Positions 9,701 through 61,556 of a stretch of 64,000 bases of DNA are shown here, one piece after another. Each line of letters opens with the position of its first letter. Position 1 is the first letter of the stretch. Made by a program: the position numbers and the translations under genes. Origin of the DNA: Ostreococcus lucimarinus (taxonomy: Eukaryota); NCBI GenBank assembly GCA_000092065.1, contig CP000595.1. One strand, given 5' to 3'. The notes under the pieces were generated by a model, which was not told where the DNA came from, did not search any database, and saw only the letters and a list, made by a program, of their open reading frames with translations.

Positions 9701-12700
9701 CCGGGAAGATTGTGCCAAGCTGGATGAACTCAGTCCCTAGAGGTGACTGGACCGCAGACCCGAAGGTGATTGAAGTGTACATCGAGCCGCAAAACGTGAG
9801 ATGGAACGAGTATAGGCGCGTCGTCAAGGTTGGCGACATGCTGCAGATTCAATTCTACACTGACCAACCGGTGAAGGGCGTGCGCGCGCTCATCGGAGAC
9901 GATAAAGCCCTTCCGCCTGCGACACATTCCGAAGTCGCGAGCGCCATGAACGTCGAGCGACCGTGCTCAAGCGATCCGGACATGCAAACTTGGCTCGGCG
10001 CGCGCGGCTTGCTCGCGCTCGCCGCCGAAGAGTACAACGACGGATCGCAGTTTTCGAACGACGACGATTGGTTCGATTGGTTGGTTCAGACGTCTTACAA
10101 CTATCGCCAACCCGTGCCCAATGTGCCGAATTACCCCAACGCCGCTGTTACGTGCACTGGATTCTGGGTCCAACGCGGGTTACGACCCAACGGTAAGCGT
10201 TATTCGGTGCGCCGTTTGTGCCCGAATAGGTACTACTTGCGACGAAGCTCGTTCGCCGCTCAGGCGCCGCTTACGTGCTCGGATCCAAATGATCGAATCT
10301 ACAAAGCCACAGACGCGTACAACTATTGGGTGATCAACTTTAGATACGTCACATCGCATCAAGTCGTCAATGGCGACGGAGCGCTTCAAATCAAGTGGCA
10401 GTTGACCACGATGGACGACCGCGTGTTGCCGACGGGTGGCGGTTGGCAGACCTCTGCAGCCTTCTTCACCTCTGCGGACACCTCTGCGGATGTCAATCAT
10501 CTCAAACCAACGTCAACTGATGCCGTCGGCGCTGCGTTTGATCCCGCGATTAGCTGCGGGCGCAACGCGGATACCGCGTTCAATCAAGCCGGGTCGGCAG
10601 TCTGGGCCGTCCAAGATACGCTGGCGCCTTCGTGCGCGAGCTTTGTCACGGATGGTTCGTGCGCGAGCACGACTGTCGCCCGTGTCGCTAACAGTAGCGG
10701 TACGACGTTCCCCACCGTCACGAATCCGGCGACCAATGTCGCCGAGCACGTGGCCGTCGTTGGTGATTATATCACGCTCATCATCACTTTTGACGAGCAT
10801 ATTGCAGCTGGAGTGTACGTGACTTTGAACGACGGGGTTCTCACCGCTCGAGCGACGAAAGTTGACAAGTACTCGGCGACGTTCACCTTTGAGGTGACGC
10901 AGACGCTCGCGGCTCTGAATACGTTTTTGGAGTACAAAGTGTACAATCTGAAGGATATTCAGGAAGCGAACACGGCGACGGCGACGTTTACGACGAACGT
11001 CTTCAACGCTGAAAAGATTCGGTTGCAAAGCGCGAGCGAATTGACGGCGTTTTCGCTCACCAATGGCGCGTGCTCAACCACTAGTAACAACGTGAATAAT
11101 CAGTACGCCAAAAATGGGAATACAGTCAACGTCTCAGTGACGCTGCCGCTGCCACCGAGTAGCGCCAACACCGTGCTGACCATCCACGAATCCAAACTTG
11201 CGGGCGTCTACGTCACGCCGCCGACGCCCACATGCGTGGGTACACCGAATGCGTGCACGATAACCATGGCGCGTACGGTTGACAGTCTCTCAGCGGACTT
11301 CGTCGATGGTAGCGTCGTGTCTTGGTCACTGGTGGTTATCGGTACGACCAAGTGTGCGCACCACGCTTCAAGCTTGTGCATCACACGCTTCAAGCTCACG
11401 TCGTGTCGCCCGACGTTTGCGTCTGAAGTCGTCTTGGATTTTACGCCGCCGTCTCTGACTTCGGTGCGTTTGAGCGAGCCTGTCACCTCAGCCTCGCTCG
11501 TCAATGGCACTGGTCAAGTGAAAGTTGACGTCGTATCGAGCGAACAATTGTATACGCTGACGTACACATTGGATACGCGAGGCCCCCTGTGCACGTACGA
11601 CTTTGGCATGGTCTCCGCCCAGTCGATGACGTTGACGACGGATGGTACTCTCACGGGTACGCACACAAAAACCATCACCGCCACGTATAACTCCGCATCG
11701 CTTCATTGCGTGCTCGAAGTCATCTGTATCACGTTTGTCGGCGAAGATATGGCTGGACACAAGCTCACGAATCCGACGACGTGTCGAAGCTTTTCTCCGA
11801 CGGATTCCGAAGACTATCCAGGATGGTTCATGCTTCACAACGTCGGCACGGGCCCAAGTTCTGTCTCGCTCGCCCGACCTCTCGGGTTACACTGCATGGA
11901 TAGTTCCGTGGACACGCAGGCATGCGCTAACAGCGCAAGCGTGACTTCGACGACGCTCGAGTACGGGAATTATCTCGCTCTCGACGTGTCGTCGGGGTAC
12001 CCTATCGGCATTACTGACATTTCCGTGGACGGCCATTCCGTCTACGCGGCGACTGGCTTTGGCTCGTCTACGTTCCAAAATGATAACGCGTGGACGATCG
12101 ATTGCTCTGATTTGGTTCGCGACGACTTGTGCGTGCGCTTTGCCACGAGCGCGACGTGCCAGGCGTACTTATGCCCGACGTGCCAGTACGCCGGTATGTG
12201 TGACTTTTCGTGCGGCTACTGCGATAGCCGTCGAGCCTTCTCGAAAACTCACAAACTAACGCTGAAGACGACCGATTTCGGATTACCCGCGACCGATTTC
12301 ACTAACGAAGTCGTCACAGTTTCGTATCGAACGAATCCGGCGATTGCGCCGGCGGCGACGATGAACTCGACGGATACTCTTACGTACACGGCGCCCACGA
12401 CGAGTTCGTGTGCTGGTCGATGTGGAGGTACAGCGCCATCTGGCTGCGAATGCAACCCGACTTGCAAATCTCGGGGCACGTGCTGCGCTGATGCCGGCCA
12501 CTGTTGTACCGTCGGTTTGCCGTCCACAGGCGCTCTCAACGTCGACGGTGGATGTCTTCGACCAAACGCCGTGACGCTCAGCGTCACCAAAGAGTCTTGG
12601 GGGGTGGACACGAAAGGCGTGCGAAAATCTAACGTTAACCGATACTCCACGATTTACATTAAACTGACTGGAAACAAGCCGATTGACGTGCGACGTGTGC

Positions 12701-33000: not shown

Positions 33001-33374
33001 GCCCGCGTCGCCCAGTGCAGTTCGACCTCGCCTCTCGCGCACCGCTCCAGGAGCGCGTCGTCCGCCGCCCGCAGCGTCGCCGTCGTCGTCCCGTTCGCGC
33101 GCGTCCGCGTCTCCACTCGCACCGCGTGCCCCCCCGCGAGCGCGTGCGTCGTCTCGCGGACCACGTCCGGGACGTCCGCCTTTTTTTCGCGCGCGCCGGC
33201 GCCTCGTCCGACGCGCGCGCGCGTCCCGGCGTCGATCGCGCCGCGCGCCGTGGATAGCGTTCCTCGCGAAGATCGCGTCGCGCGGCGCGCCGTCGCGCGG
33301 TCGATCGTCGCGCGCGCCGCGTCCGCGCGCGCGAACGTCGCGCGCGTCGCGTCGCGCGCGAGAGAGACGCGCAT
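30015..33374 (-). CDS. GWD: Alpha-glucan water dikinase (GWD/PWD family starch phosphorylating enzyme) with an N-terminal transit-peptide-like region
   Basis: Phosphohistidine motif LLSHIAIRARNTNVLLASV. The C-terminus SPQDIEGAVVGDRIVLLQTRAQI matches the GWD SPQDIEG...VVQTRPQ end. The 1119-aa ORF has an R/A/T/S-rich N-terminus. Confidence 0.85.
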   Translation of the reverse strand: MRVSLARDATRATFARADAARATIDRATARRATRSSRGTLSTARGAIDAGTRARVGRGAGAREKKADVPDVVRETTHALAGGHAVRVETRTRANGTTTATLRAADDALLERCARGEVELHWATRAVDGDGSWAKAPRGLEARTGSRDFGDGIASRSAFDASGTLTLEMDCSNASEGDVEGLRNVGSIVGIVVCGEFWAHAEDGDVEMRVRESAAGGGGGAAGAESLARRAAEHEGGSVNLFTRFCMVDDALDAALAIGPEGAALVYAWLRLSSLRQLHWYAGNNYQGKDMASKQERLAGRIAHAATTAPDATSRGLMRASLAFLPRGGGNGDDIRMGILNIMRTHGIKEGHRPGIEDPFIAQWHQKLHSNTTPDDVKICEAYLHFLHTGNWDDFWAHLWDNAGLTREDLAGMKAGWRSDGIHGPAFHMPQMIDSFKHYLWVLKTTHSGGDVDSAMNFARNGLPGDLAWEVDDLLQNRDAWWVPGKIIEVRKKLLGVWQHDSPNRDVVMLDATLEKFFRTKVEAVDYGAMSSDDLLSLLELSLTNVALTNESTRIGEGLKFLQVAMGDGHGERWGADWSKTMDAALDFCALAMESDMDFLCRATQNAADIIASKSTKADPKYLINFGEENVRSHSLFVVSQLISTLRPAVRAAAGRSPWQIVSVGDASLETYAGMAKVQTLSEIQGEDFSSTPMVCFTETLGGLEDIPAGVKAVVTKAPVDLLSHIAIRARNTNVLLASVADDVLWNKVLEMAGENVRFSIAGEDVQIDKANVSDATTTASAKATTKVSIAPYKPSDAWLITPDAYSSDIVGGKSNSLSEMAKELAAMNIANVDVPGSYALPFGTFERALEEDVDTRTALEAAVAAIETATTAEDRRAALADAREIIATRLVCPQGLESALDEAAAKLSPSVDLPRLWDAVCGVWASKWTERAWLSRKSCGIDDKDLNVAVLLMELVDAEFAFVVHTANPVTGDADEIFGEICVGLGETLVGNDAGSALGFTVSKTTGEVTLRSLPSKLCGHFAPSGGTVIARSDSNGEDLENFAGAGLYDSITAEPTEERVVDYTASSIVWNSLAREAMIRRISDIAKSVESYRGSPQDIEGAVVGDRIVLLQTRAQIC

Positions 33375-33516
33375 CGCGCGCGCGCGCGTCGTCGGTCGCG
33401 GTGTGACGATTCGCTTCGACGAATCGAATCGTCAGAGCGCGACGCCGCGCCGCGCGGACGCGTCGACGCGCGGCGCGACGCGACGGCGACGCGCGCGGTC
33501 CTCCGCGGCGTTTCGC

Positions 33517-33726
33517 ATGTGCGGCGCGTGCCGCGCGCGGCGCGCGAGCGCGAGAGAGACGACGACGCGCGCGGAATTCTGCGCGCCGTGTCGCGACGGC
33601 GCGAGAGCGACGACGACGCGCGCGACGCGCGTCGCGGACGGGGCGTCGTTCGACGTCGTCGTGTGCGGCGCGGGCGCGGCGGGGACGTCGTTCGCGCGGA
33701 CGTACCTGGAGACGACGGCGCGGGGT

Positions 33727-33766
<40 letters not shown>

Positions 33767-35241
33767 CGCGCGGCGCGAGGCTGCTGCTGCTCGATCGCGG
33801 CGGATGCGCGAAGACGGTCGAGCGCGTGGAGCGCGTGACGCGGCGGGCGTCGGTGTACGGCGCGCGGGAGAGCGCGCTGGGGGCGCTGGAGGCGCTGGGG
33901 GCGCGGACGGCGACGGCGAGCGTCGCGGCGTGCGACGCCGAGTCGAAGACGTTGACGCTGGACGACGGCGCGCGCGTGCGGTACGGCGCGCTGTGCGTCG
34001 CCACGGGGGCGACGCCGCGATGTCCGCTGCCGGAGGCGAGCGATGGAGCGGTCGACGCGCACGAGGTGCGAGACGTGGAGAGCGCGGACGCGCTGGCGAG
34101 ACGGTTGAGCTCGATGACGGCGACGGCGAGCGCGGATTCGGATTCAAAGACGAAACGGATCGCGATCGCGGGGAACGGAGGGATCGCGCTCGAGCTCGTC
34201 GACGCGCTCTGTGTGCGAGGTTTGCGCGCGCGAGGGTTGGAGGCGTGCGAATTGGTGTGGTTGGTGAAACACGGCGAAGTCGGCGACGCCTTTTTCGACG
34301 TCGACGCCGCGGATTTCTTGCTGCGCGCGCTCGACGCGAGACGGCGAGACGGCGAGGCGAAAGACGACGACGGCGCGGACGTGGACTGGGACTCACCGAC
34401 GCCCGAACGCGGTGCCGGACGATCGACGAAGAAGCGCGCGCGAGGGCGCGAATCAGGCGCCGCCGCCGGTCCGGATTGGCTCGACAGATTTAGAGCGAAG
34501 AGCGCGGCGGACGACGCGCGCGCGCCTCTCAGCCGCATGAAGCTTCGCGTGCTGAAAAATGTGTGCATACGCGAAGCGCGTAAAGACGCAAACACCGGCG
34601 TCAACGTATTGACGCTGAGCGATGGGACGACGATCGAGGTGGACGCCGTCGTCGCCGCCGCGGGCGTCGAGCCGAGATGCGATTGGCTCGACGAAGTCGC
34701 CGCGCCGAGGTCGAAATCAGACGGCGGTATACTCGTCGATGCGTGCATGCGCACCGTAGGACCGTACGGCGACTCAATATTTGCCGTCGGCGACGCGTGC
34801 ACGATGTCGGCGCGCGCGTCGAACCCAGAGACGCCGTGGTTTCAAATGCGACTGTGGAGCCAGGCGGCGCAAACAGGCGCCTTCGCCGCGAAAGTCGCCG
34901 TGGGCGTCTGCGACGCCGACGCCCTCGGATTCAATTTCGAAATCTTTACCCACGTCACCAGGTTTTTCGGTCTCAAAGTCATCTTGCTCGGGCTGTACAA
35001 CGCCCAGAAGCTCGACGACGTCCCGGCGAACGAGGTGACGACGTACCAGCGCGAGTCGCTCGCCGACGCGACGTACGTGCGCGTGCTCCTCGTCCGCGGT
35101 CGCATGATGGGCGCCGTGCTCGTCGGCGACACCGATCTCGAGGAAACTTTCGAAAACCTAATCTTAGACGGCGTCGATCTATCGCGTTTCGGTCCGAGTT
35201 TACTCGATCCCGAGCTCGACTTGGAGGATTATTTCGACTGA
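33517..35241 (+). CDS. PYROXD1: PYROXD1-like FAD/NAD(P)-dependent pyridine nucleotide-disulfide oxidoreductase, copy A
   Basis: FDVVVCGAGAAGTSFA Rossmann motif, IAGNGGIALELV, GPDW and VGDACTMS. The C-terminal RGRMMGAVLVGDTDLEETFENLILDGVDLSRFGPSLLDPELDLEDYFD matches the conserved PYROXD1 C-terminus. It carries a (GD)6 insert encoded by (GGCGAC)6. The start is taken at the first Met inside the repeat, because upstream ORF sequence is antisense to GWD. Confidence 0.8.
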
Positions 35242-35323
35242 CGCGACGCGCGAGACGAGCGAGAAACGAATGAAATCAAATGACAATCAACCCTAGACAA
35301 CTACCACCGTCCGACGCCCGCGC

Positions 35324-35727
35324 TCAGTGCGGTTTCGGCACGAACCCGTCCACCGCGAAATTCCGCGTCGCGCGCGGTAAAATCACGACGCATCCCTCCA
35401 ACGCTCCGCGCTCCAGCGTCACCTGACACCCCAACCTCGACGTCGCCGTCAACCCGTACGCCAAATCTAACATGTCGTTCTCGTCGTCGCACGCCTCCGG
35501 CAGCGTCTCGAACACTTTTTCGTCCTCGAACACGACGTGGCACGTGGAACACGCGAGCGAGCCCTCGCACGCGCCCTCGAGCTCGACGTCGTGCCGGTGC
35601 GCCGTCTCCAGCAGGTTCTCGCCAATCAATCCGCGCACCGCGCGTCGCTCACCGTCGCGCTCGACGAACGTCACCTCGATCGAGTTCTCGGGCGTGAGTT
35701 TCGTCTTTTTGTCCGCGCCGTGCGCGA
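35324..35727 (-). pseudogene. 3' fragment of the adrenodoxin-type 2Fe-2S ferredoxin gene, truncated at the duplication boundary
   Basis: Encodes ...VTFVERDGERRAVRGLIGENLLETAHRHDVELEGACEGSLACSTCHVVFEDE...CQVTLERG... identical to the C-terminal two-thirds of the 42442-43047 gene. Homology stops at 35727, upstream of which the presequence is missing. Confidence 0.7.
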
Positions 35728-36283
35728 CCGTGATCCCGGCTCGTCCACGTGGCGCGTACGAATAAGAATGAGAATGAGAATGCGCGGCGATCGAGCGTCT
35801 TCGTTCGCGCGGTCGCGTCCCCGCGCTCGGCCGCTCGTGCGTTCGCGCGCGTTCGCGGTCGAGTCGATCACCGGACGACGCGTTCGTTCGCGCGTCGTCG
35901 AGTGCGGCGACCGAGGGCCGTCGCGCCCGGTGATGCGATGTCCACGTGGGATCGTGGAATATCTGGCTGTGTGCGTAAACAGTGACGGGGGGCTTCTCGG
36001 ATCGACCCCGCGGCCCGTGGGGAGAGGGGCATGGTGTTGGATGGTGTGTACGCGAAACGTGTGTGCATCATACGTATATTGACCCAAAGGTATCTATCAC
36101 GTGTAAAGGTACTAATGTGTGTGTGAAATTCAATGATGGGTCATGACTCGAGAACGGGGGGGGGAGGCACACCCGGGATGCGCGCCGATTCTTATCGACA
36201 GAGGAGGACGAGGAGGACGATTGGCGCGCGCGTCGCGTTCGATGGAAAACCGATGTCGTATGACAAACAGATAAAAACGTTAT

Positions 36284-37702
36284 TTAGTGCGCGTGCCCGT
36301 GCGAGTGGCCGCCGCCGCCGCCGGCTGTGCAGTGCTTGTGGTTGAGGAGCACGAGACTGACGGCGACGACGCCGACGACGAACGTCAAGAGGCTCGCCGC
36401 GCGAAGACGAGACGTAGTGGCGCTCACCGAAACTCGCGGCATACACTCCGCGGCAGCGATTTGTAGATAGATTCCAGCGCCAAAGGCGAGCAAAAGTCCG
36501 TGCCAGAAGTCGTTGTTACTTCCAGATCCAACGCTGATGAGAACGCCGAGGATGACGCTCACGCCGGAGATGAAGTTCATGAACAGCGAGCGAAACGGCG
36601 TGAGATCGCCCTGGAAGGGATCCGTGAGTACCAAATAGTCGGCGAGCTCTTGCGCGATTTCGTGATAGACGGTCGCGGCGGTGATCGACCATCCCATGGT
36701 CTTTCCACAGTTCAGGAAACCGAATCCGATGAAGATGCCATCCACGAGGTTGTGCATGAAATCTCCGAGGATGATGCCGCTTCGAACGCGATACTTGTGC
36801 GAGTGGCACGTTTCGCAATCTTCTTGAACGCCTTTGATCGCGTTCTCCGCGTCGATCGTCTTCGTCTCGGCTAAACGAGAAGGGAACGCGATGGAGATGC
36901 CCAAATCGATGATGTACGCCACGAGAAAGCCAAAGACGGACGCGGACGCCCACCACGCGGTTTGTTGCGACTCATCCGAACCGGCGGGTTTGATCAAATG
37001 CGTGGCTTCGTACAACATCAGATAGAACGCAGCCGAAAGAAGTGCACCGGCGGCAAAGGAGTTAATGATGCAACTCACGAATTCGGGGTACGCTTTCTGC
37101 TTCTTCGCGAAGCTCGGAGAGAGAAAGATGACGCCGGAAAGCGTGACGATGTTGACGATGATCGCCGCCCCGATGGCGTCGGACCACGGTTTTGATTTCT
37201 TTGTAGTCACCGTTTCGGGAAGCGAAGCCACTGGCTCCACGTCATCCCCGTTGACATCCTTGAGATAGTGCGTATCGCGCTCGAACTCGGTGGGAACGTG
37301 CTCGGCGAAAATCGAGACGGCGGCGACGCCAGTCGTATCAATCTTAAACGACGACGTGTGCCAAGCGTTATCAAATTGAAGTTTGACGCATCCACTCCCG
37401 GGCGTCAAAACGCTGTTTCGCGTTTTAACCGTCGTGCACGCCGTCTCGAGCGCGGCCTCGCCCGCGTCCTCGCGAGCCTCGAGCTCTTCGTGTCCGGCGG
37501 CGGTTTCGGCGTAGATGACCATCTTCATGGTCGCGTCCGCGTACTGGTCCTTCACCTTTTCCGCCTGCCACACGTACGCATCGTCCGGAGTCTCAAAGAT
37601 CCCCGCCCATTCGAACGAGTGCGCGTGCGCGCCGGACGCGAGCGCGCCGCGCGCCGCGAGCGCGCTCGAGACGACCGCCGCGCCTCCGAGCGCGGCGCCC
37701 AT
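36284..37702 (-). CDS. ZIP family (LIV-1/KE4-like subfamily) zinc/metal transporter
   Basis: HEIAQELADYLVL (HExPHExGD motif), GDFMHNLVDGIFIGFGF, a C-terminal His-rich GGGGGHSHGHAH tail, and the signal-peptide-like MGAALGGAAVVSSALAARGALASGAHAHS. The start is chosen at that Met. Upstream in-frame Mets exist. Confidence 0.8.
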   Translation of the reverse strand: MGAALGGAAVVSSALAARGALASGAHAHSFEWAGIFETPDDAYVWQAEKVKDQYADATMKMVIYAETAAGHEELEAREDAGEAALETACTTVKTRNSVLTPGSGCVKLQFDNAWHTSSFKIDTTGVAAVSIFAEHVPTEFERDTHYLKDVNGDDVEPVASLPETVTTKKSKPWSDAIGAAIIVNIVTLSGVIFLSPSFAKKQKAYPEFVSCIINSFAAGALLSAAFYLMLYEATHLIKPAGSDESQQTAWWASASVFGFLVAYIIDLGISIAFPSRLAETKTIDAENAIKGVQEDCETCHSHKYRVRSGIILGDFMHNLVDGIFIGFGFLNCGKTMGWSITAATVYHEIAQELADYLVLTDPFQGDLTPFRSLFMNFISGVSVILGVLISVGSGSNNDFWHGLLLAFGAGIYLQIAAAECMPRVSVSATTSRLRAASLLTFVVGVVAVSLVLLNHKHCTAGGGGGHSHGHAH

Positions 37703-37943
37703 CCTCCATCCGCCTCCTCGTCGTCGTCGTCGTCGTCCCGCGCCCGCGGTCGCGTCTCGCGTCGTCATCGCGTCGCGCATCGTCTCGTCTATCGTCTCGT
37801 GCATCGTCTCGTTCGTCGTCGTCGTCGTCGTCGCGCGTCGTCGAGTGCGGCGACCGCGCGCGCCGGCATCGCGACGAGACGACTCGAACCGGCGCGAGGG
37901 GGGTACTTCTCGAGTCATGACTCGATATTCATGAGAACACCAT

Positions 37944-37971
37944 GTGTCGACACCTCGCGAGGTGTCGACAC
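37944..37971. promoter_or_regulatory. 28-bp perfect palindrome GTGTCGACACCTCGCGAGGTGTCGACAC holding two exact ZDRE-type motifs (RTGTCGACAY) in the ZIP/bZIP divergent promoter
   Basis: Read directly. Its reverse complement equals itself. It lies 242 bp upstream of the ZIP ATG (37702, minus strand) and 47 bp upstream of the bZIP ATG (38018). A second palindrome CGAGTCATGACTCG with TGACTC half-sites is at 37911-37924. Confidence 0.65.
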
Positions 37972-38017
37972 GCGTGTCTTCGTACGTCCGCGCGCGACGA
38001 CGACGACGACGACGAGG

Positions 38018-38680
38018 ATGACGACCGTCGGCGGCGCCGCGCGACGTGACGATCGAGGCTCGGCGTTGCCTCCGCGATGCGTCGAGATCGCGCGCGAGTC
38101 GCCGTCGGCGTCGCCGTCTCGAAGGAAAACGCCCGCGAACGATCGCGCCGTCAATCGCGCCGCCGTGCGACGGTACCGCGAGCGCAAACGAATGGACGAG
38201 AAGGAGAGAATCGAGGAGTGCGAACGGTTGCGCGGGGAGAACGAGACGTTGAGACTGGCGTTGGAGACGTCACGAGCGGAGTTGAAACATTCGAGGTGGT
38301 TGTTGCGCGTCGTCGCGTGGAAGTACGACTTAGACTTGGCGGATATTCCGACGGAGAAACCGTCGACGTCGACGATGCCGCAAGGGAGGGTGAGAGGAAG
38401 CGATGCAAACGCGGTGTTTCCCGCGGGTGGGGTCCCCGCGCGGAACGACATCGCGCGACCGTTCGCCGCGCGCGGCGTCGCCGAGACGCGGCCTCGGAAA
38501 ATTCCTCGCGCAGCCGACGACGACGCGAAACCGGCGGGCGCGCCTGATGAACTCGAGCTCAAAGATTTCTTGGAGGAATACTTCACGCACGGCGACGCGT
38601 GCCCGTGCTACGAGATCACGGACGCGGACGCGCGCGCGGCGCCGACGCGCGGCGCCGACGCGCGGCACGCGTGGTTCTAG
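38018..38680 (+). CDS. bZIP-like transcription factor, paralog 1, with a C-terminal Cys motif (FLEEYFTHGDACPCYE)
   Basis: Basic region NRAAVRRYRERKR (N-x7-R), then the zipper EECERLRGENETLRLALETSRAELKHSRWLL. It aligns along its length with the second bZIP at 58700-59194, including the FLxEfxxHxDxxCPC tail. Confidence 0.6.
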   Translation: MTTVGGAARRDDRGSALPPRCVEIARESPSASPSRRKTPANDRAVNRAAVRRYRERKRMDEKERIEECERLRGENETLRLALETSRAELKHSRWLLRVVAWKYDLDLADIPTEKPSTSTMPQGRVRGSDANAVFPAGGVPARNDIARPFAARGVAETRPRKIPRAADDDAKPAGAPDELELKDFLEEYFTHGDACPCYEITDADARAAPTRGADARHAWF

Positions 38681-38850
38681 GTATGACGACACATTTACGT
38701 CACACGGTGAAACGTTTTACGCTTCTAATATTATATTATAAAGTTAGTCAACCTATATAGTTACACGCACCACATGATGTCACACGTGATGTGCACACGC
38801 GTATGTATTCGTACTGTGAGTACAATAAGCCTAACATTGTGTAAAATCCC

Positions 38851-40167
38851 GTGCCCACGATGATCGCGCGTGTCGACACGAACAGACGGTTGGCCGAAAA
38901 GGCGAAAGGGTCGGCGGCTGTCGTCATCTCTCGACGAACGTTGGCGCTCGACATGGCGGACGAGCAAGACCAGACCTCGCGCGTGCCGGTGACCATTCTC
39001 ACCGGATTTCTCGGTTCCGGGAAGACGACGCTCCTCAATGAAATCTTGGAATCCGAAACGCACGGATTGCGCTTCGCGGTGATTGAAAATGAATTCGGAG
39101 AGGTGGGCGTCGACGAGAGGATTCTGTCGGAGAAGGCGGACGAAGAGATCATCGAGGTCATGAACGGTTGCATCTGCTGCACGGTGCGCGGTGATCTCGT
39201 GGTGGCGCTGAAAAAGCTCTACTCGAAGATCGCGCAGTTCGACGCCGTCATCATCGAGACGACGGGTTTGGCGGATCCGGCGCCGGTGGCGCAGACGTTC
39301 TTCGTCGACGATGACATTCGAGAAAAGTTTGTGCTCGACGGAATCATCACGGTCACGGACGCGAAGCACATCCTCACGCGGCTCGATGATGAAAAACCCG
39401 AGGGTGTGGAGAATGAAGCCGCCGAACAGGTCGCTTTTGCCGATCGGATACTCCTCAACAAGACCGACTTGGTGTCCGAAGACGAACTCGAAACCATCAC
39501 GGGCCGGATCAAGCAAATTAATCCGAGCGCCGATATCTTCCGATGCCAGTATTCCAAGGTTGATCCGAAAAATTTGATCGGAATCAATTCCTTCTCGCTC
39601 GAGAAGACCTTAAAAATGGATCCCGAATTCCTCAACACGGAGGGCGAGCATGAACACGACCCAACCGTGTCTTCGACGAGCACAAAATTCTCTGGGCACC
39701 TCAACATCAATAAATTAGAACGCTGGATAGGCGAAATAATTCAAACAATGGGTGCGGACTTGTTTCGGTACAAGGGTGTTCTTTCCGTTGCGGGCATGGA
39801 TCAAAAGTTTGTTTTCCAGGGCGTCGGCATGCTTTTCTCCGGCGGCTTCGTCGACGCCAAGTGGGGAGCCGACGAGGAGCGCGAATGCCGCTTCGTCTTC
39901 ATCGGTAAAAATCTGGACAAAGACGCCCTCATCAACGGTTTCATGGATTGCAAGTGTTCCTCGAAGCTTCGCTTCAAGGTGGGCGACGCGGTTCTCGCGC
40001 AGGTGGGCGCCGCCGACAACGACGGCTACTGCCGCGGCACCGTCCGTAAGACGTGGGACTCGGGCAACCCGTACCAGATCGAACTTGAAGACGGTAAAAA
40101 GACAAAAGTGTGGGGACCCGTCGACGAAGACGAGTTCGTCAAAGCTTCGCTCAGCGCCACCGCGTAA
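38851..40167 (+). CDS. COG0523/CobW-family GTPase (ZNG1-like zinc metallochaperone family)
   Basis: ILTGFLGSGKTTLLNEIL (P-loop), GCICCTVRGDL (CxCC metal motif), DAVIIETTGLADP and a CobW_C-like C-terminus. An exact ZDRE GTGTCGACAC at 38870-38879 lies inside the first annotated codons, so the true start is probably the Met at 38953 (MADEQDQTSRVPVTILTGF). Confidence 0.8.
   Translation: MPTMIARVDTNRRLAEKAKGSAAVVISRRTLALDMADEQDQTSRVPVTILTGFLGSGKTTLLNEILESETHGLRFAVIENEFGEVGVDERILSEKADEEIIEVMNGCICCTVRGDLVVALKKLYSKIAQFDAVIIETTGLADPAPVAQTFFVDDDIREKFVLDGIITVTDAKHILTRLDDEKPEGVENEAAEQVAFADRILLNKTDLVSEDELETITGRIKQINPSADIFRCQYSKVDPKNLIGINSFSLEKTLKMDPEFLNTEGEHEHDPTVSSTSTKFSGHLNINKLERWIGEIIQTMGADLFRYKGVLSVAGMDQKFVFQGVGMLFSGGFVDAKWGADEERECRFVFIGKNLDKDALINGFMDCKCSSKLRFKVGDAVLAQVGAADNDGYCRGTVRKTWDSGNPYQIELEDGKKTKVWGPVDEDEFVKASLSATA
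38870..38879. promoter_or_regulatory. ZDRE-type motif GTGTCGACAC at the 5' end of the COG0523 gene
   Basis: Exact match to RTGTCGACAY. It is 74-83 bp upstream of the alternative start at 38953. Confidence 0.5.
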
Positions 40168-40317
40168 ATGTCGTTTTGTATGAAATCAAATCAAAATTTT
40201 GACCAGTCATGAACCTTCGTGTACACACTCCTCCTTTAGCGCGAACACACACGCATAGTATAGATACAAAAAGACAAGGTAAAACCCATCCAACGCACTC
40301 GCACCGGCTCGCCGGCT

Positions 40318-40492
40318 CGCCTCGTCCGACGCGCGCGCGCGTCCCGGCGTCGATCGCGCCGCGCGCCGTGGATAGCGTTCCTCGCGAAGATCGCGTCGCG
40401 CGGCGCGCCGTCGCGCGGTCGATCGTCGCGCGCGCCGCGTCCGCGCGCGCGAACGTCGCGCGCGTCGCGTCGCGCGCGAGAGAGACGCGCAT
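40318..40492 (-). pseudogene. Duplicated 5' fragment of the GWD gene: promoter-proximal sequence and the first 57 codons, with no downstream GWD sequence
   Basis: ORF 40151-40492 begins MRVSLARDATRATFARADAARATIDRATARRATRSSRGTLSTARGAIDAGTRARVGRG, identical to the GWD N-terminus. It diverges at the repeat edge and runs antisense into the last 17 nt of the COG0523 gene. Confidence 0.7.
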
Positions 40493-40634
40493 CGCGCGCG
40501 CGCGCGTCGTCGGTCGCGGTGTGACGATTCGCTTCGACGAATCGAATCGTCAGAGCGCGACGCCGCGCCGCGCGGACGCGTCGACGCGCGGCGCGACGCG
40601 ACGGCGACGCGCGCGGTCCTCCGCGGCGTTTCGC

Positions 40635-40844
40635 ATGTGCGGCGCGTGCCGCGCGCGGCGCGCGAGCGCGAGAGAGACGACGACGCGCGCGGAATTCTGC
40701 GCGCCGTGTCGCGACGGCGCGAGAGCGACGACGACGCGCGCGACGCGCGTCGCGGACGGGGCGTCGTTCGACGTCGTCGTGTGCGGCGCGGGCGCGGCGG
40801 GGACGTCGTTCGCGCGGACGTACCTGGAGACGACGGCGCGGGGT

Positions 40845-40884
<40 letters not shown>

Positions 40885-42359
40885 CGCGCGGCGCGAGGCT
40901 GCTGCTGCTCGATCGCGGCGGATGCGCGAAGACGGTCGAGCGCGTGGAGCGCGTGACGCGGCGGGCGTCGGTGTACGGCGCGCGGGAGGACGCGCTGGGG
41001 GCGCTGGAGGCGCTGGGGGCGCGGACGGCGACGGCGAGCGTCGCGGCGTGCGACGCCGAGTCGAAGACGTTGACGCTGGACGACGGCGCGCGCGTGCGGT
41101 ACGGCGCGCTGTGCGTCGCCACGGGGGCGACGCCGCGATGTCCACTGCCGGAGGCGAGCGATGGAGCGGTCGACGCGCACGAGGTGCGAGACGTGGAGAG
41201 CGCGGACGCGCTGGCGAGACGGTTGAGCTCGATGACGGCGACGGCGAGCGCGGATTCGGATTCAAAGACGAAACGGATCGCGATCGCGGGGAACGGAGGG
41301 ATCGCGCTCGAGCTCGTCGACGCGCTATGTGTGCGAGGTTTGCGCGCGCGAGGGTTGGAGGCGTGTGAATTGGTGTGGTTGGTGAAACACGGCGAAGTCG
41401 GCGACGCCTTTTTCGACGTCGACGCCGCGGATTTCTTGCTGCGCGCGCTCGACGCGAGACGGCGAGACGGCGAGGCGAAAGACGACGACGGCGCGGACGT
41501 GGACTGGGACTCACCGACGCCCGAACGCGGTGCCGGACGATCGACGAAGAAGCGCGCGCGAGGGCGCGAATCAGGCGCCGCCGCCGGTCCGGATTGGCTC
41601 GACAGATTTAGAGCGAAGAGCGCGGCGGACGACGCGCGCGCGCCTCTCAGCCGCATGAAGCTTCGCGTGCTGAAAAATGTGTGCATACGCGAAGCGCGTA
41701 AAGACGCAAACACCGGCGTCAACGTATTGACGCTGAGCGATGGGACGACGATCGAGGTGGACGCCGTCGTCGCCGCCGCGGGCGTCGAGCCGAGATGCGA
41801 TTGGCTCGACGAAGTCGCCGCGCCGAGGTCGAAATCAGACGGCGGTATACTCGTCGATGCGTGCATGCGCACCGTAGGACCGTACGGCGACTCAATATTT
41901 GCCGTCGGCGACGCGTGCACGATGTCGGCGCGCGCGTCGAACCCAGAGACGCCGTGGTTTCAAATGCGACTGTGGAGCCAGGCGGCGCAAACAGGCGCCT
42001 TCGCCGCGAAAGTCGCCGCGGGCGTCTGCGACGCCGACGCCCTCGGATTCAATTTCGAAATCTTTACCCACGTCACCAGGTTTTTCGGTCTCAAAGTCAT
42101 CTTGCTCGGGCTGTACAACGCCCAGAAGCTCGACGACGTCCCGGCGAACGAGGTGACGACGTACCAGCGCGAGTCGCTCGCCGACGCGACGTACGTGCGC
42201 GTGCTCCTCGTCCGCGGTCGCATGATGGGCGCCGTGCTCGTCGGCGACACCGATCTCGAGGAAACTTTCGAAAACCTAATCTTAGACGGCGTCGATCTAT
42301 CGCGTTTCGGTCCGAGTTTACTCGATCCCGAGCTCGACTTGGAGGATTATTTCGACTGA
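40635..42359 (+). CDS. PYROXD1: PYROXD1-like oxidoreductase, copy B
   Basis: Identical to copy A apart from two amino-acid substitutions noted on inspection (E/D and V/A). Confidence 0.8.
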
Positions 42360-42441
42360 CGCGACGCGCGAGACGAGCGAGAAACGAATGAAATCAAATG
42401 ACAATCAACCCTAGACAACTACCACCGTCCGACGCCCGCGC

Positions 42442-43047
42442 TCAGTGCGGTTTCGGCACGAACCCGTCCACCGCGAAATTCCGCGTCGCGCGCGGTAAAA
42501 TCACGACGCATCCCTCCAACGCTCCGCGCTCCAGCGTCACCTGACACCCCAACCTCGACGTCGCCGTCAACCCGTACGCCAAATCTAACATGTCGTTCTC
42601 GTCGTCGCACGCCTCCGGCAGCGTCTCGAACACTTTTTCGTCCTCGAACACGACGTGGCACGTGGAACACGCGAGCGAGCCCTCGCACGCGCCCTCGAGC
42701 TCGACGTCGTGCCGGTGCGCCGTCTCCAGCAGGTTCTCGCCAATCAATCCGCGCACCGCGCGTCGCTCACCGTCGCGCTCGACGAACGTCACCTCGATCG
42801 AGTTCTCGGGCGTGAGTTTCGTCTTTTTGTCCGCGCCGTGCGCGATCCGCGGCGACGCGGAGACGCCGCGAGCGACGTAAAGCTGGGCAGGTTTCTGGGA
42901 CGCGCGCGGCGCGGCGTCCCGGGGACGCGACGCCGACGCGCGCGGGAGGGCGGTCGAGGCGAAACACGCGGTCGACGACGACGACGACGACGACGACGCG
43001 CATCGCGCGCTCGCGGCGGCGCACGCGCGCGCGAGACGGCGAAACAT
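42442..43047 (-). CDS. Adrenodoxin-type [2Fe-2S] ferredoxin with an N-terminal mitochondrial-type presequence (intact copy)
   Basis: CEGSLACSTCHV matches the CxxxxxCxxCH cluster motif. LDLAYGLTATSRLGCQV gives the fourth Cys. The N-terminus MFRRLARACAAASARCASSSSSSSSTACFAS is R/A/S-rich. It is convergent with PYROXD1 copy B, whose stop is at 42359. Confidence 0.8.
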   Translation of the reverse strand: MFRRLARACAAASARCASSSSSSSSTACFASTALPRASASRPRDAAPRASQKPAQLYVARGVSASPRIAHGADKKTKLTPENSIEVTFVERDGERRAVRGLIGENLLETAHRHDVELEGACEGSLACSTCHVVFEDEKVFETLPEACDDENDMLDLAYGLTATSRLGCQVTLERGALEGCVVILPRATRNFAVDGFVPKPH

Positions 43048-58487: not shown

Positions 58488-58699
58488 CGAATCCGTCCCT
58501 CTTATCGATGACGCGTCTTTTTCGTCGTCGCGCCGGCGTCGCGCGTTCGCGCGTCCGAAACGCCGCCCGAGCGCGTTCGACGCGCGTCCGCTCGCGAATC
58601 CGAGAGCGCGTCGCCGTCGTCGCGTCCGCGTCGCGGTGTGCGCGTCCCGAATCGCGCCGTCCCAGGCCCCTCTTCGTCGCACTTCGCCGCGCGACGCGA

Positions 58700-59194
58700 A
58701 TGCGCGCGTCGCGCGGCGACGACGCGCCGGCGCTCCCGGGACGCGCGGTCGCGGTGGACGAAGACAAAAAATCGATCGACAACGACGCGAACAAGCGCGC
58801 CGTCAAGCGCTACCGCGATCGTCAGCGCGACGCGAAGATGAAGTTGGAATCCGAAAACGCGGCGCTGCGAGTGGAGACGACGCGGTTGGCGACGGAGCTC
58901 GCGCACGCGCGATGGGTGCTCGACGCGGTGGCGTCGCGGTGCGGGATGAAGCGACGCGCGACGGGGCGCGACGCGGACGCGGCGCTGCGCCGAAGCGTCG
59001 CGCGCGTGATCCACGGCGCGGGGTGCCCGCTGGGACATCAGGGGCGGGACAGGCCGTTTCGATTGGACGCGACGGAGGCGAGGCGACGCGAGGACGAGGA
59101 CGAGGACGAGTTGGCGGCGTTTTTGAAGGAGTTTTTGGTGCACGAGGACGGGAAGTGTCCGTGCCCGGGGCGCGCGCGCGATGGGGGCGAGTAG
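58700..59194 (+). CDS. bZIP-like transcription factor, paralog 2, with a C-terminal Cys motif (FLKEFLVHEDGKCPCPG)
   Basis: NKRAVKRYRDRQRDAKMKLESENAALRVETTRLATELAHARWVL aligns with the bZIP at 38018-38680. The ORF could start at 58508, but that would overlap the CbbY ORF on the other strand. Confidence 0.55.
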   Translation: MRASRGDDAPALPGRAVAVDEDKKSIDNDANKRAVKRYRDRQRDAKMKLESENAALRVETTRLATELAHARWVLDAVASRCGMKRRATGRDADAALRRSVARVIHGAGCPLGHQGRDRPFRLDATEARRREDEDEDELAAFLKEFLVHEDGKCPCPGRARDGGE

Positions 59195-59675: not shown

Positions 59676-61166
59676 CTAGTGCGCGTGCTCGACGCCGAGT
59701 TGCGCGAGCGCGATGACGAGAACGCCGGCGGTGTAACACACGAACTTGTAAATGCGCATGCCGCGCGCGGGCGCTTCGTGCACGGTGTGCGTGTGCGGAG
59801 CGAGTTTATGGTCGTGACCGTGCTCGTCTTCGCACGATTGCGTTTGCGTCTCGAACTCGTCGCCGATGACTTCCACGGTACCGACGTAAATGAACGTACC
59901 GGCGGCGATGCCCTCGAGGACGGCGGAGACGGCTGGGCTGTGTGCGCTTTCCGCCGCGCACCCGATCAAGATCCCGATCGGGGTTATGAACGAAAACGCC
60001 GTCATGAAAATGAAGAGCGTCTGCGGATTCGTCATGCCGCAGCGCAAAAACGCGCACCCGATGCTGAACGCGGCCGCGGCTTTGTGCGACGCGATGGCGG
60101 TGAAAATCGCGTACACACTGTTTCGATCGCTTTGAAGCCCGAGGGAGACACCCGCGAGAGAGGCGTGCAACGCGACGCCCGCCATGAAGAGCAAAGCCGT
60201 TCTCGTCTGCGCGAAGATGGACACGTGACGACCCTTCTCGTCGTGCGCGCACGTGTCGCACGCGTCGGTCGACGCCTTGTCCACGACGACGACGACGGCC
60301 GCATCGACGTGATGTTCTTTACTTTGTCCGTGTCCGTGTCCGTGTCCGTGGCCGTGCTCTCCGTCGCCCTCGCTCTCCGTCACGTGCGAGTGCGTGTGAA
60401 ACACGACGCGTTCGACGAAGAACGCGATGAGAAATCCCAGCATGACCATGACCATGGCGAAAGGATACTCCTTCGCCGTACCGATGCGTGCCTCCGTCGC
60501 GCTCTCGAGCGCGTGCGGGACGAGGTGCACGAACCCAGACGCGAGAAACAATCCCCCGCTGAACGCGTTCATAAACTCCAACGCGCTCTGCATCTTCGGC
60601 AGCGTTCTCACGAACAGCGACGGCAACATTCCTCCCGCCAAACCTTCAAAAAACACAGCCACCATGAGACCCATCTTGAGTTTGAAATGCTTCAACCCAC
60701 CCGTCGCCGCCGCCGCGCTTTCCGCCTCGCTCGCGATGAACGTGCACGTCGACTCGCTCAGGCACCGCGCCGCCAAACTCAGCGCCGAGAGCAACTCGGT
60801 CTCGTTCAACTTTTGATCCGCGCCCGCGTACGTCGTGATCACGTCCGCCGACGACACGTTCGTCAGCGTCTCCTCCGCGCTCGCGTGCGCGTGTCCAGCG
60901 CTCGCGTGCGCGTGTCCAGCGTGCGAATCCGCGCCCGCGCCCGCGCCGCTCGTCCTCGCCGCGAACCGCTCGAACAATTCGCTCAGCTCGTGAGCGTCCA
61001 TCGTCGCGTCGTCGTTGTCGTCGTTGTACGTCTCCAAGATGTGATCCACCGGCGTCTCGTCGCCTCTCGCGACGCGCGCCATCGCGCACGCGCACGCGCA
61101 CACCGTCAGCGCCGTCGCGAATCGCGCGCGCGCCCGTCGACACCGCCGCCGGTCGTTCGCCGTCAT
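59676..61166 (-). CDS. ZIP family zinc/metal transporter with a His-rich loop
   Basis: FFEGLAGGMLPS, HGHGHGHGHGQSKEHH loop, HKAAAAFSIGCAF, GIAAGTFIYVGTVEVIGDEF. The start is taken at MTANDRRRC (ATG complement at 61166-61164). The 1118-aa track ORF is inflated by stop-free antisense sequence of the LHC gene. Confidence 0.8.
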   Translation of the reverse strand: MTANDRRRCRRARARFATALTVCACACAMARVARGDETPVDHILETYNDDNDDATMDAHELSELFERFAARTSGAGAGADSHAGHAHASAGHAHASAEETLTNVSSADVITTYAGADQKLNETELLSALSLAARCLSESTCTFIASEAESAAAATGGLKHFKLKMGLMVAVFFEGLAGGMLPSLFVRTLPKMQSALEFMNAFSGGLFLASGFVHLVPHALESATEARIGTAKEYPFAMVMVMLGFLIAFFVERVVFHTHSHVTESEGDGEHGHGHGHGHGQSKEHHVDAAVVVVVDKASTDACDTCAHDEKGRHVSIFAQTRTALLFMAGVALHASLAGVSLGLQSDRNSVYAIFTAIASHKAAAAFSIGCAFLRCGMTNPQTLFIFMTAFSFITPIGILIGCAAESAHSPAVSAVLEGIAAGTFIYVGTVEVIGDEFETQTQSCEDEHGHDHKLAPHTHTVHEAPARGMRIYKFVCYTAGVLVIALAQLGVEHAH

Positions 61167-61398
61167 CTTGTCTCGCGCCGTCGCGAATCGCGCGCGCGTC
61201 GAGTCCCGGTCTCGACGCCCGCGCCCGGTTCGCCCCGGTTCGAGCGCGCGCGAACGAGCCGAAGAGGCGTCGCGAAGTGCGGCGATGCGCGCGCGTCGTG
61301 CACGTGTCGACGATTCGCGTCGTGCACGTGTCGAGGATCGTCGTACGCGACGCCCCGCGAAGCCCATCACGGATCGCGTCGCGACGCGCGTCGTAAAC

Positions 61399-61556
61399 AT
61401 GTCGACACGCATGTCGACATATTTACCCACGCGCGTGTACGCATTGAACCCCGTGATGCATCTATATACGAAAAACGTCTCGACGCACATGTCGACATAT
61501 TTACCCCACGCGCGTGTACGCATTGAACCCCGTGATGCATCTATATACGAAACAGA
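61399..61556. promoter_or_regulatory. Tandemly repeated ~78-bp element (about 2.2 copies) carrying three exact ZDRE-type motifs, in the divergent promoter between the ZIP gene (minus) and the LHC gene (plus)
   Basis: ATGTCGACAC at 61399-61408 and ATGTCGACAT at 61411-61420 and 61489-61498. The repeat unit gtcgacatatttacc(c)cacgcgcgtgtacgcattgaaccccgtgatgcatctatatacgaaa starts at 61413 and 61491. It lies 233-392 bp upstream of the ZIP ATG. Confidence 0.65.

Follow-up and report, generated by a model that had tools for sequence, protein, structure and literature searches.

An RTGTCGACAY promoter element and linked bZIP genes outline a candidate metal-deficiency regulon in Ostreococcus

Introduction

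Does a unicellular green alga control metal uptake through the promoter element that serves the zinc-deficiency response of land plants? In Arabidopsis, the F-group bZIP proteins bZIP19 and bZIP23 act on the zinc-deficiency response element, or ZDRE, which occurs as RTGTCGACAY in one to four copies at the promoters of ZIP metal transporter genes. F-group bZIPs (F-bZIPs) have been stated to be absent from green algae, including Ostreococcus lucimarinus, and to have arisen with land plants (PMC5476651, PMC9643250). A sequence-only reading of 64 kb of O. lucimarinus DNA (contig CP000595.1, assembly GCA_000092065.1; hereafter the window) had nevertheless proposed a bZIP19/23-ZDRE-type zinc-deficiency circuit, with genes for ZIP transporters, bZIP factors and a COG0523 GTPase clustered around exact copies of the element. 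We combined motif counts, comparison of orthologous loci from O. tauri and marine metagenomes, protein profile and structure comparisons, and published expression data to examine this proposal. The evidence makes a bZIP/ZDRE-type metal-deficiency regulon of an Ostreococcus-type prasinophyte probable, with a regulator that is not an F-group bZIP.

Results

A rare element upstream of ZIP, COG0523 and bZIP1 genes

The genes and sites on which the argument turns are, by position in the window:

36284..37918, (-) strand: ZIP1, open reading frame (ORF) of a ZIP-family metal transporter (Pfam Zip, E 3e-21)
37944..37971: perfect 28-bp palindrome GTGTCGACAC-CTCGCGAG-GTGTCGACAC, holding two ZDRE-type sites with centres 18 bp apart
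38018..38680, (+) strand: bZIP1, candidate regulator (Pfam bZIP_2, E 9e-7; basic region NRAAVRRYRERKR; invariant C-terminal motif ELELKDFLEEYFTHGDACPC)
38683..38692: hybrid CRE/ZDRE site ATGACGACAC (CRE, cAMP response element), directly 3' of the bZIP1 stop codon
38870..38879: ZDRE-type site GTGTCGACAC, 74-83 bp 5' of the COG0523 ATG
38953..40167, (+) strand: COG0523, CobW-like G3E GTPase metallochaperone (Pfam cobW 2e-61, CobW_C 9e-23)
58700..59194, (+) strand, within ORF 58508-59194: bZIP2, paralogous candidate regulator (weak Pfam bZIP_2; basic region NKRAVKRYRDRQR)
59676..61166, (-) strand: ZIP2, ZRT/IRT-type ZIP transporter with a His-Gly repeat loop GEHGHGHGHGHGQ (Pfam Zip, E 8e-48)
61395..61552: ZIP2 promoter, a 78-bp tandem repeat with three ZDRE-type sites, 233-332 bp 5' of the ZIP2 ATG

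Exact copies of RTGTCGACAY start at 37944, 37962, 38870, 61399, 61411 and 61489, and all six lie upstream of ZIP1/bZIP1, COG0523 or ZIP2. The 8-bp core TGTCGACA has no copy in the window outside these sites, so that exact count and core search agree with the earlier statement of six copies and none elsewhere. The shorter GTCGAC is frequent in the window, at 73 copies. In 100 dinucleotide-preserving shuffles of the window the expected count of RTGTCGACAY was 0.59 and no shuffle reached six; the rarity claimed by the sequence-only reading thus holds, with 0.59 replacing its chance expectation of about 0.2.

The 28-bp palindrome, described earlier together with the site at 38870-38879 and found at both places as described, occupies the divergent ZIP1/bZIP1 promoter 47-74 bp 5' of the bZIP1 ATG, and its two sites may go back to a single duplication event. 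The COG0523-proximal site recurs in every near-identical copy of the cassette (contigs L001-L006). Three copies had also been reported at the ZIP2 promoter, beside the second bZIP gene. They are present (ATGTCGACAC at 61399, ATGTCGACAT at 61411 and again at 61489), but the last two are not independent, because both lie in the 78-bp tandem duplication (61395-61473 versus 61473-61552, 93.8% identical). The number of ZDRE-bearing 78-bp units varies among near-identical strains, with three sites in the window and four in L011, L013 and L014; this variation is a putative cis-regulatory copy-number polymorphism.

The hybrid form ATGACGACAY that follows the bZIP1 stop codon is also found in O. tauri (L007, at ~10643 and ~10720). 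At the corresponding position of L008 (10776) there is a full ZDRE, even though COG0523 is swapped there for an ankyrin-repeat gene.

Conservation across Ostreococcus-type lineages

Two sets of loci were compared with the window. The ZIP1/bZIP1 set comprised the near-identical contigs L001-L006, O. tauri chromosome 6 (L007, 20.6 kb), L008 and L009/L010; the ZIP2 set comprised 19 orthologous metagenome loci at 51-98% identity, plus L035 at 50%. The bZIP1 of the window is 52% identical to the annotated O. tauri protein and 55-99% identical to its marine metagenome relatives. When 141 kb from nine non-redundant Ostreococcus-type loci were searched with the TGTCGACA 8-mer as the only string, 25 of 25 cores fell within the 5.5 kb (3.9%) upstream of ZIP1/bZIP1, COG0523 and ZIP2 genes (binomial P 5e-36, a nominal value that common descent and tandem repeats make too extreme).

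O. tauri and lineages at 51-62% protein identity retain the sites. O. tauri has just three core copies in its 20.6 kb, all of them in the ZIP1-bZIP1 intergenic region; L008 (62% bZIP1 identity) has three in that region and one directly after the bZIP stop codon, and L009/L010 (55% bZIP1 identity) have two in the same region. In an alignment of this intergenic region from four species, the ZDRE-type sites are kept while the surrounding sequence has diverged. Every ZIP2 locus with at least ~400 bp of upstream sequence carries one to four sites, 245-530 bp 5' of the ZIP2 match, and the ZIP2 loci without a site all end short on the upstream side; L035 shows the same promoter pattern. Where sites are adjacent, their spacing is 12 or 18 bp, and each ZIP promoter has one to four copies.

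The bases flanking the core played no part in the search, which used the 8-mer alone, and thus serve as an independent test. All 25 non-redundant sites have a purine at position -1, and 24 of them have a pyrimidine at position +8, so that the R...Y rule holds in 49 of 50 cases. The plant ZDRE consensus, RTGTCGACAY, has the same R/Y degeneracy (PMC9643250). Judged by these comparisons, RTGTCGACAY is a conserved predicted cis-element specific to the promoters of the two ZIP genes, COG0523 and bZIP1, and not a product of chance.

Each ZIP gene has a bZIP neighbour

Every Ostreococcus-type lineage sampled has ZIP1 and bZIP1 as a divergent pair. In O. tauri, as in the species of the window, COG0523 comes next after bZIP1; in L008 the ankyrin gene takes its place. 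At the second locus, the genes keep the order LHC-ZIP2-bZIP2-HAD, in which bZIP2 converges on ZIP2, down to 33% bZIP2 identity, and loci reached independently through distant bZIP2-type proteins show it too. In two GC-rich ZIP2 relatives at 37-39% identity (L033 and L034), motif and linked bZIP gene are both missing; motif and bZIP linkage therefore co-occur. For the same reason, an extension of the arrangement to another genus was dropped, and among the loci sampled it appears confined to Ostreococcus-type lineages.

The bZIP proteins combine F-group contact residues with an ATF4-like domain

bZIP2 is 35% identical to bZIP1, and the invariant residues are common to both. Across the algal alignments these residues are N46, A49, V50, Y53, R54, H91, W94, H191, C195 and C197. 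The zipper of the algal family carries an invariant E-L-x-H-x2-W-x-L signature, and the C-terminus reads E-L-x-[LF]-K-x-F-L-E-x-Y-F-T-H-G-D-x-C-P-C, with H191, C195 and C197 invariant; together with H91, these three are the sole invariant Cys/His residues. Proteins of the bZIP2 type have an extra H-x3-C-P-L unit followed by GPFRL, represented in bZIP2 itself by AHGAGCPL, GPFRL and FLVHEDGKCPCPG. An AlphaFold2 model of bZIP1 shows a helix at residues 39-102 with a predicted local distance difference test (pLDDT) score above 86, and a short C-terminal helix is also confident.

For comparison with plants, authentic F-bZIPs were fetched with an AtbZIP19 query and verified through their source names (e.g. 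"Basic leucine zipper 19"). Their basic region is an invariant N-R-E-A-V-R-K-Y-R-E-K-K-K, and the contact residues N-x2-A-V-x2-Y-R are invariant in both algal paralogue families and in 12 authentic F-bZIPs (NREAVRKYREKKK). A bZIP profile search over 1.84 billion representatives gave 88 significant hits, among which A-V...Y occurs only in the algal family, in one land-plant F-bZIP and in three orphan metagenomic proteins. The remaining hits are mostly ATF4-like, with N..AA..YR. What the algal bZIPs and the F-bZIPs have in common is the set of predicted DNA-reading residues and the DNA site.

Kinship with the plant F group, which the earlier proposal implied, was not borne out beyond these residues. 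The N-terminal Cys/His zinc-sensor motif of that group (C-T-H-T-H-T-C-N-P...T-H-T-H-T-C-F-H-V-H-T-K) is absent in all algal homologues. Domain hidden Markov models (HMMs) scored algal bZIP1-type proteins at 16-19 bits for F-bZIPs and 45-53 bits for ATF4-like proteins, a comparison biased towards the latter since its members had been picked for their likeness to the algal profile. The algal profile itself gave 20-36 bits against 120 F-bZIPs and 29.5 bits against human ATF4, and the closest structure is that of ATF4 (1ci6_A, 31 bits). The O. tauri orthologue has likewise been annotated as ATF4/5 by ORCAE and HHpred. An hhalign comparison of the algal and F-bZIP alignments returned 96% probability, which shows only that both are bZIPs, and a post-zipper 'LL...P..KP' likeness to F-bZIPs seen with BLASTP was no better than a shuffled null. 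F-group membership by whole-domain similarity was rejected, as ATF4-like proteins outscore F-bZIPs; because the sensor motif is absent, the nearest structure is ATF4 and the HMMs favour ATF4-like proteins, we do not file the algal bZIPs as F-bZIPs.

One of the orphan metagenomic proteins deserves separate mention. P0159 (L036, 7001-9289; 762 aa) carries NR[AE]AVRRYREKKKA in its two bZIP domains, and no match to the basic region of F-bZIPs outside land plants is closer. A Cys/His-rich region of the protein contains CWHVHRI, similar to CFHVHTKI of the F-bZIPs. Possibly, P0159 is an F-like bZIP of an organism other than a land plant. Its 9.9-kb locus has no ZIP gene and no ZDRE.

The presumed targets

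The bZIP domain (Pfam bZIP_2) and the COG0523 GTPase with its CxCC motif (Pfam cobW and CobW_C; GCICC) are as first described. COG0523 has a GFLGSGKTT P-loop and a C-terminal extension of ~70 aa. Among solved structures E. coli YjiA comes closest to it (1.7e-55), and COG0523 scores below the equivalog cut-offs of all three NCBIfam models, YjiA, CobW and ZigA. It is 87% identical to O. tauri ostta06g02290. Induction of COG0523 proteins marks Zn or Zn/Co limitation in Chlamydomonas (PMC2770081) and diatoms (PMC9010474).

The true start of ZIP1 is probably the ATG at 37702 rather than 37918, and the 470-aa gene calls in near-identical contigs agree with it. The protein is 74% identical to O. tauri ostta06g02310. 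LIV-1 (LZT) ZIPs are defined by HEXPHEXGD in transmembrane segment (TM) 5. The earlier assignment of ZIP1 to this type survives for the ZIP family, on a generic Pfam Zip match, and fails for LIV-1 itself: TM4 has a LIV-1-like HNLVDG, TM5 reads HEIAQELAD, with Gln for the second His, and ZIP1 is LIV-1-like only. Its N-terminal ~170 aa (ORF residues ~90-240; 36284-37702) are rich in His, Asp and Glu, follow a signal-like segment and have no Pfam match; they might form an extracytoplasmic metal-capture domain. ZIP2 would be orthologous to O. tauri Ot-Irt1 (ostta16g02300), as judged by the shared His-Gly loop and the family description; a homology search gave no named entry from O. tauri.

Expression of the O. 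tauri orthologues

Gene lengths in O. tauri match the L007 locus exactly (ostta06g02310, 1422 nt, 8245-9666; ostta06g02300, 630 nt, 10001-10630; ostta06g02290, 1296 nt), and by this correspondence the three genes are the orthologues of ZIP1, bZIP1 and COG0523 (CobW), respectively. Published O. tauri RNA-seq compares 54 with 1080 nM Fe-EDTA over one week in AQUIL medium at four time points (supplement of PMC4855317). Under low iron, ostta06g02290 rose ~11-fold (log fold change, logFC, 3.5), with -Fe/+Fe reads of 110/9.6, 157/15, 135/16 and 235/13; ostta06g02310 rose ~4-fold (logFC 1.96), and ostta06g02300 had logFC values of 2.1 and 1.6 at two of the four time points (PMC4855317). Two of the six O. 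tauri ZIP genes were regulated, namely ostta06g02310 and ostta16g02300, the latter being Ot-Irt1 with its His-Gly repeat loop (PMC4855317). The motif-bearing genes are thus co-regulated in vivo under long-term low iron. For the zinc-deficiency proposal this means that co-induction is found, under long-term iron limitation, while zinc enters by analogy.

In the short-term data of the same study, ostta06g02300 is expressed strongly at night (light/dark logFC -5.2, with ~3 reads by day versus 100-200 at night; PMC4855317). Diel control therefore also acts on the candidate regulator.

Genomic context

Features around the cassette and elsewhere in the window are:

33191..35730: left copy of a 2.5-kb direct repeat, with a pyridine-nucleotide-disulphide oxidoreductase and an adrenodoxin-type Fer2 gene; context, outside the regulon
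37912..37923: palindrome GAGTCATGACTC (GRGTC-N2-GACYC), beside the ZDRE pair and conserved in four species
40307..42849: right copy of the 2.5-kb direct repeat; context, outside the regulon

The two repeat copies bracket the ZIP1-bZIP1-COG0523 cassette and are 99.6% identical over 2543 bp (self-BLAST). Their Fer2 and pyr_redox genes were rejected as regulon members; they have no motif and are unlinked to the cluster in O. tauri. Metagenome contigs contain the cassette again (93-97% nucleotide identity), in no fewer than three flanking contexts and, in L003 and L006, as tandem arrays with a unit of ~6.2 kb. This pattern suggests that a putative metal-uptake cassette varies in copy number and position in wild populations.

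The GRGTC-N2-GACYC palindrome was considered as a second regulon-specific element and rejected, since unrelated divergent intergenic regions, and those between LHC and ZIP2, have it as well. Further copies are at 36138-36149 in the window and at L001 10683/10765, L007 2964/3041/9873, L008 9986/17794 and L021 3313. It is probably a general bidirectional-promoter element of Ostreococcus.

A Pfam scan of nine further ORFs of the window found AMP-binding/ankyrin, glucan-water dikinase, AP-complex subunit, ankyrin/MYND, ACT-domain, GOST and DHHC proteins, with two ORFs lacking a match; no other metal-related gene was among those scanned. LHC, HAD hydrolase, oxidoreductase and Fer2 genes are also in the window, and neither these nor the nine scanned ORFs have the motif. 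Positions 3688-26742 on the (+) strand form a single ORF of 7,684 aa with coding-like composition; at E <= 1e-5 no Pfam family matches its first 4,000 residues.

Discussion

A probable circuit of linked regulators and targets

The conserved promoter-specific motif, the bZIP-ZIP linkage, the contact residues and the co-induction in O. tauri support, in part, the circuit proposed by the sequence-only reading; F-group kinship of the bZIPs is not supported, and the zinc signal is an analogy. We therefore favour, as the probable explanation, a bZIP/ZDRE-type metal-deficiency regulon in which the linked bZIPs would be the factors that bind the motif. bZIP1 and bZIP2, each encoded beside a ZIP gene, would bind the RTGTCGACAY palindromes as homo- or heterodimers and, when metal is scarce, activate ZIP1, ZIP2, COG0523 and bZIP1. 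bZIP1 would thereby be positively autoregulated from the divergent promoter that it shares with ZIP1. Metal could be sensed by the invariant H-x3-C-P-C, which is fused to the C-terminal acidic-hydrophobic segment DELELKDFLEEYF, possibly with participation of the zipper residue His91; metal binding would mask activation or change localisation, and loss of metal would switch the factor on. As the primary signal, zinc has roughly an even chance; iron is a weaker candidate, and both metals together or another signal a weaker one still.

Several observations weigh against this circuit. Within the regulon, bZIP2 has no motif in its own promoter. The region upstream of COG0523 in O. tauri has hybrid ATGACGACAY sites only and no full ZDRE, and this gene is the most strongly induced of the set despite that promoter. 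At the protein level, P0160, a relative of the bZIP2 type, has A-A instead of A-V, the only such algal member, and the AlphaFold2 model of bZIP1 has no confident tertiary contact at the putative metal site; the role of H-x3-C-P-C as a sensor is one that we infer. The sole expression data have iron limitation as the stimulus, in EDTA-buffered medium with zinc nominally equal, and treatment with the iron chelator DFOB for 3-6 h had little effect, with a logFC of 0.55 for CobW (PMC4855317). Lastly, another factor could recognise the palindrome.

Alternatives

The alternative that survives best keeps the circuit and changes the metal: an iron- or combined Fe/Zn-deficiency regulon, with the ZIPs as IRT-like Fe(II) importers and the bZIPs sensing iron status or a downstream signal. 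CobW, ZIP1, bZIP1 and Ot-Irt1 of O. tauri are all induced after one week of low iron; the authors of that study assign Ot-Irt1, with its IRT1-like His-Gly loop, to iron uptake (PMC4855317), and ZIP2 of the window has the same kind of loop. The same study describes strong zinc-iron cross-talk, with zinc status modulating iron uptake, and "no obvious iron regulon" in O. tauri (PMC4855317). Short-term exposure to DFOB, however, hardly changes these genes, which argues against direct iron sensing. As many as 1,201 genes are up in long-term low iron (PMC4855317), so that secondary effects are likely, a further point against iron. COG0523 induction is moreover a hallmark of Zn or Zn/Co limitation (PMC2770081, PMC9010474), and the cis-element has the very sequence of the plant zinc-deficiency element (PMC9643250). 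We consider the iron version possible but doubtful. The ligands of the putative sensor also bear on this choice. His/Cys-Pro-Cys sets are commoner at Zn(II) sites.

A second alternative accepts the palindrome and removes the bZIPs as its readers: an unrelated factor would bind the sites, and the neighbouring bZIPs would be co-regulated targets or bystanders. bZIP1 does stand behind the motif like any other target, and by whole domain the algal bZIPs resemble ATF4. ATF4-type bZIPs bind CRE or C/EBP-ATF response element (CARE) sites, not TGTCGACA. Against such a factor stand the two independent bZIP-ZIP linkages, which are kept in all motif-bearing lineages and absent where the motif is absent. 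The contact residues are the same as in the only bZIP group known for this non-ACGT palindrome, and a 10-bp dyad with two 5-bp half-sites has the geometry of a bZIP dimer site. An unrelated reader thus seems unlikely to us, more so than the iron version.

That six copies arose by local duplication in a CG-rich genome and have no function, as the tandem origin of two of the three ZIP2-promoter sites and the 73 GTCGAC copies might suggest, is effectively refuted by the cross-species comparison, in which six or more divergent lineages have sites at the orthologous promoters and the other ~135 kb examined have none, and is opposed as well by the shuffles (0 of 100) and the R/Y flank rule (49 of 50).

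Likeness to known systems

The metal-deficiency regulon that we favour is closest in outline to the Arabidopsis bZIP19/bZIP23-ZDRE circuit, which serves ZIP and NAS genes in zinc deficiency. Both have the same RTGTCGACAY in one to four copies at ZIP promoters, the same five contact residues N..AV..YR and the same presumed logic, in which uptake genes are activated under metal scarcity. They differ in the sensor candidate, which is the C-terminal H-x3-C-P-C in the algae and an N-terminal Cys/His-rich region in plants, and in whole-domain similarity, which is ATF4-like in the algae and not that of the F group. In addition, the algal regulator genes are linked to their targets, the bZIP1 promoter carries the element, COG0523 belongs to the set, and the algal induction data concern low iron only. 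ATF4 and ATF5 have the best overall bZIP-domain likeness to the algal proteins and share with them the R-Y-R basic region and the zipper E-C-x2-L-x3-N-E-x-L. The algal proteins depart from ATF4 in having A-V for A-A, a conserved C-terminal putative metal-ligand motif that ATF4 lacks, and the element TGTC|GACA rather than CRE or CARE.

Parallels in logic extend further than homology. The yeast Zap1-ZRE-ZRT1/ZRT2 system is a zinc-uptake regulon with a positively autoregulated regulator, like the circuit proposed here. In Zap1, zinc binding masks activation domains, which offers an analogy for the algal acidic-hydrophobic segment. Zap1 is, however, a C2H2 zinc finger protein that acts on the zinc-responsive element (ZRE) ACCTTNAAGGT, with no homology to the algal system in protein or site. 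Yap1 and Pap1 are bZIPs with a C-terminal Cys motif beside a hydrophobic segment resembling a nuclear export signal, and they are controlled post-translationally in response to redox state. The algal bZIPs likewise have a C-terminal Cys motif beside a hydrophobic segment, but Yap1/Pap1 sense redox and not metal, have an N..AQ..FR basic region and bind other target sites; with E = 2.1 for Pap1, the likeness does not go beyond the bZIP fold. In the zinc-deficiency response of Chlamydomonas the same target classes are co-induced, ZIP-family (ZRT) and COG0523 (ZCP/ZNG) genes, whereas the regulator and cis-element there are unknown (PMC2770081); in Ostreococcus, candidates for both are visible from the gene arrangement.

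Significance

The prasinophyte regulon is, in our assessment, real and previously undescribed, and what is new relative to the plant circuit is the bZIP lineage, the sensor module and the linkage of regulator to target. Literature searches on ZDRE or TGTCGACA with algae, Ostreococcus or Chlamydomonas returned no report of such a circuit in algae; no zinc-homeostasis transcription factor or cis-element has been described in any alga, and no iron one in prasinophytes. The circuit challenges the view of F-bZIP/ZDRE as a land-plant system (PMC5476651, PMC9643250). Tentatively, the bZIP/ZDRE switch might already have existed in the common ancestor that green algae share with plants, with N..AV..YR and the palindrome kept and the sensor exchanged (C-terminal H-x3-C-P-C versus N-terminal Cys/His). 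Ostreococcus would then have its regulator genes still welded to their transporter targets in a compact, amplification-prone cassette. Whether the plant zinc switch proves to have deep ancestry or the contact residues and the palindrome turn out to have been reused convergently, the outcome would be informative. The window supplies a candidate regulator pair, a precise candidate site and a target set; for O. tauri, tools for knock-outs and reporters are at hand, as is a good part of the pertinent RNA-seq. Surface oceans hold little zinc and iron, and the variable copy number of the cassette in metagenomes hints that metal-uptake dosage is under selection in wild picophytoplankton.

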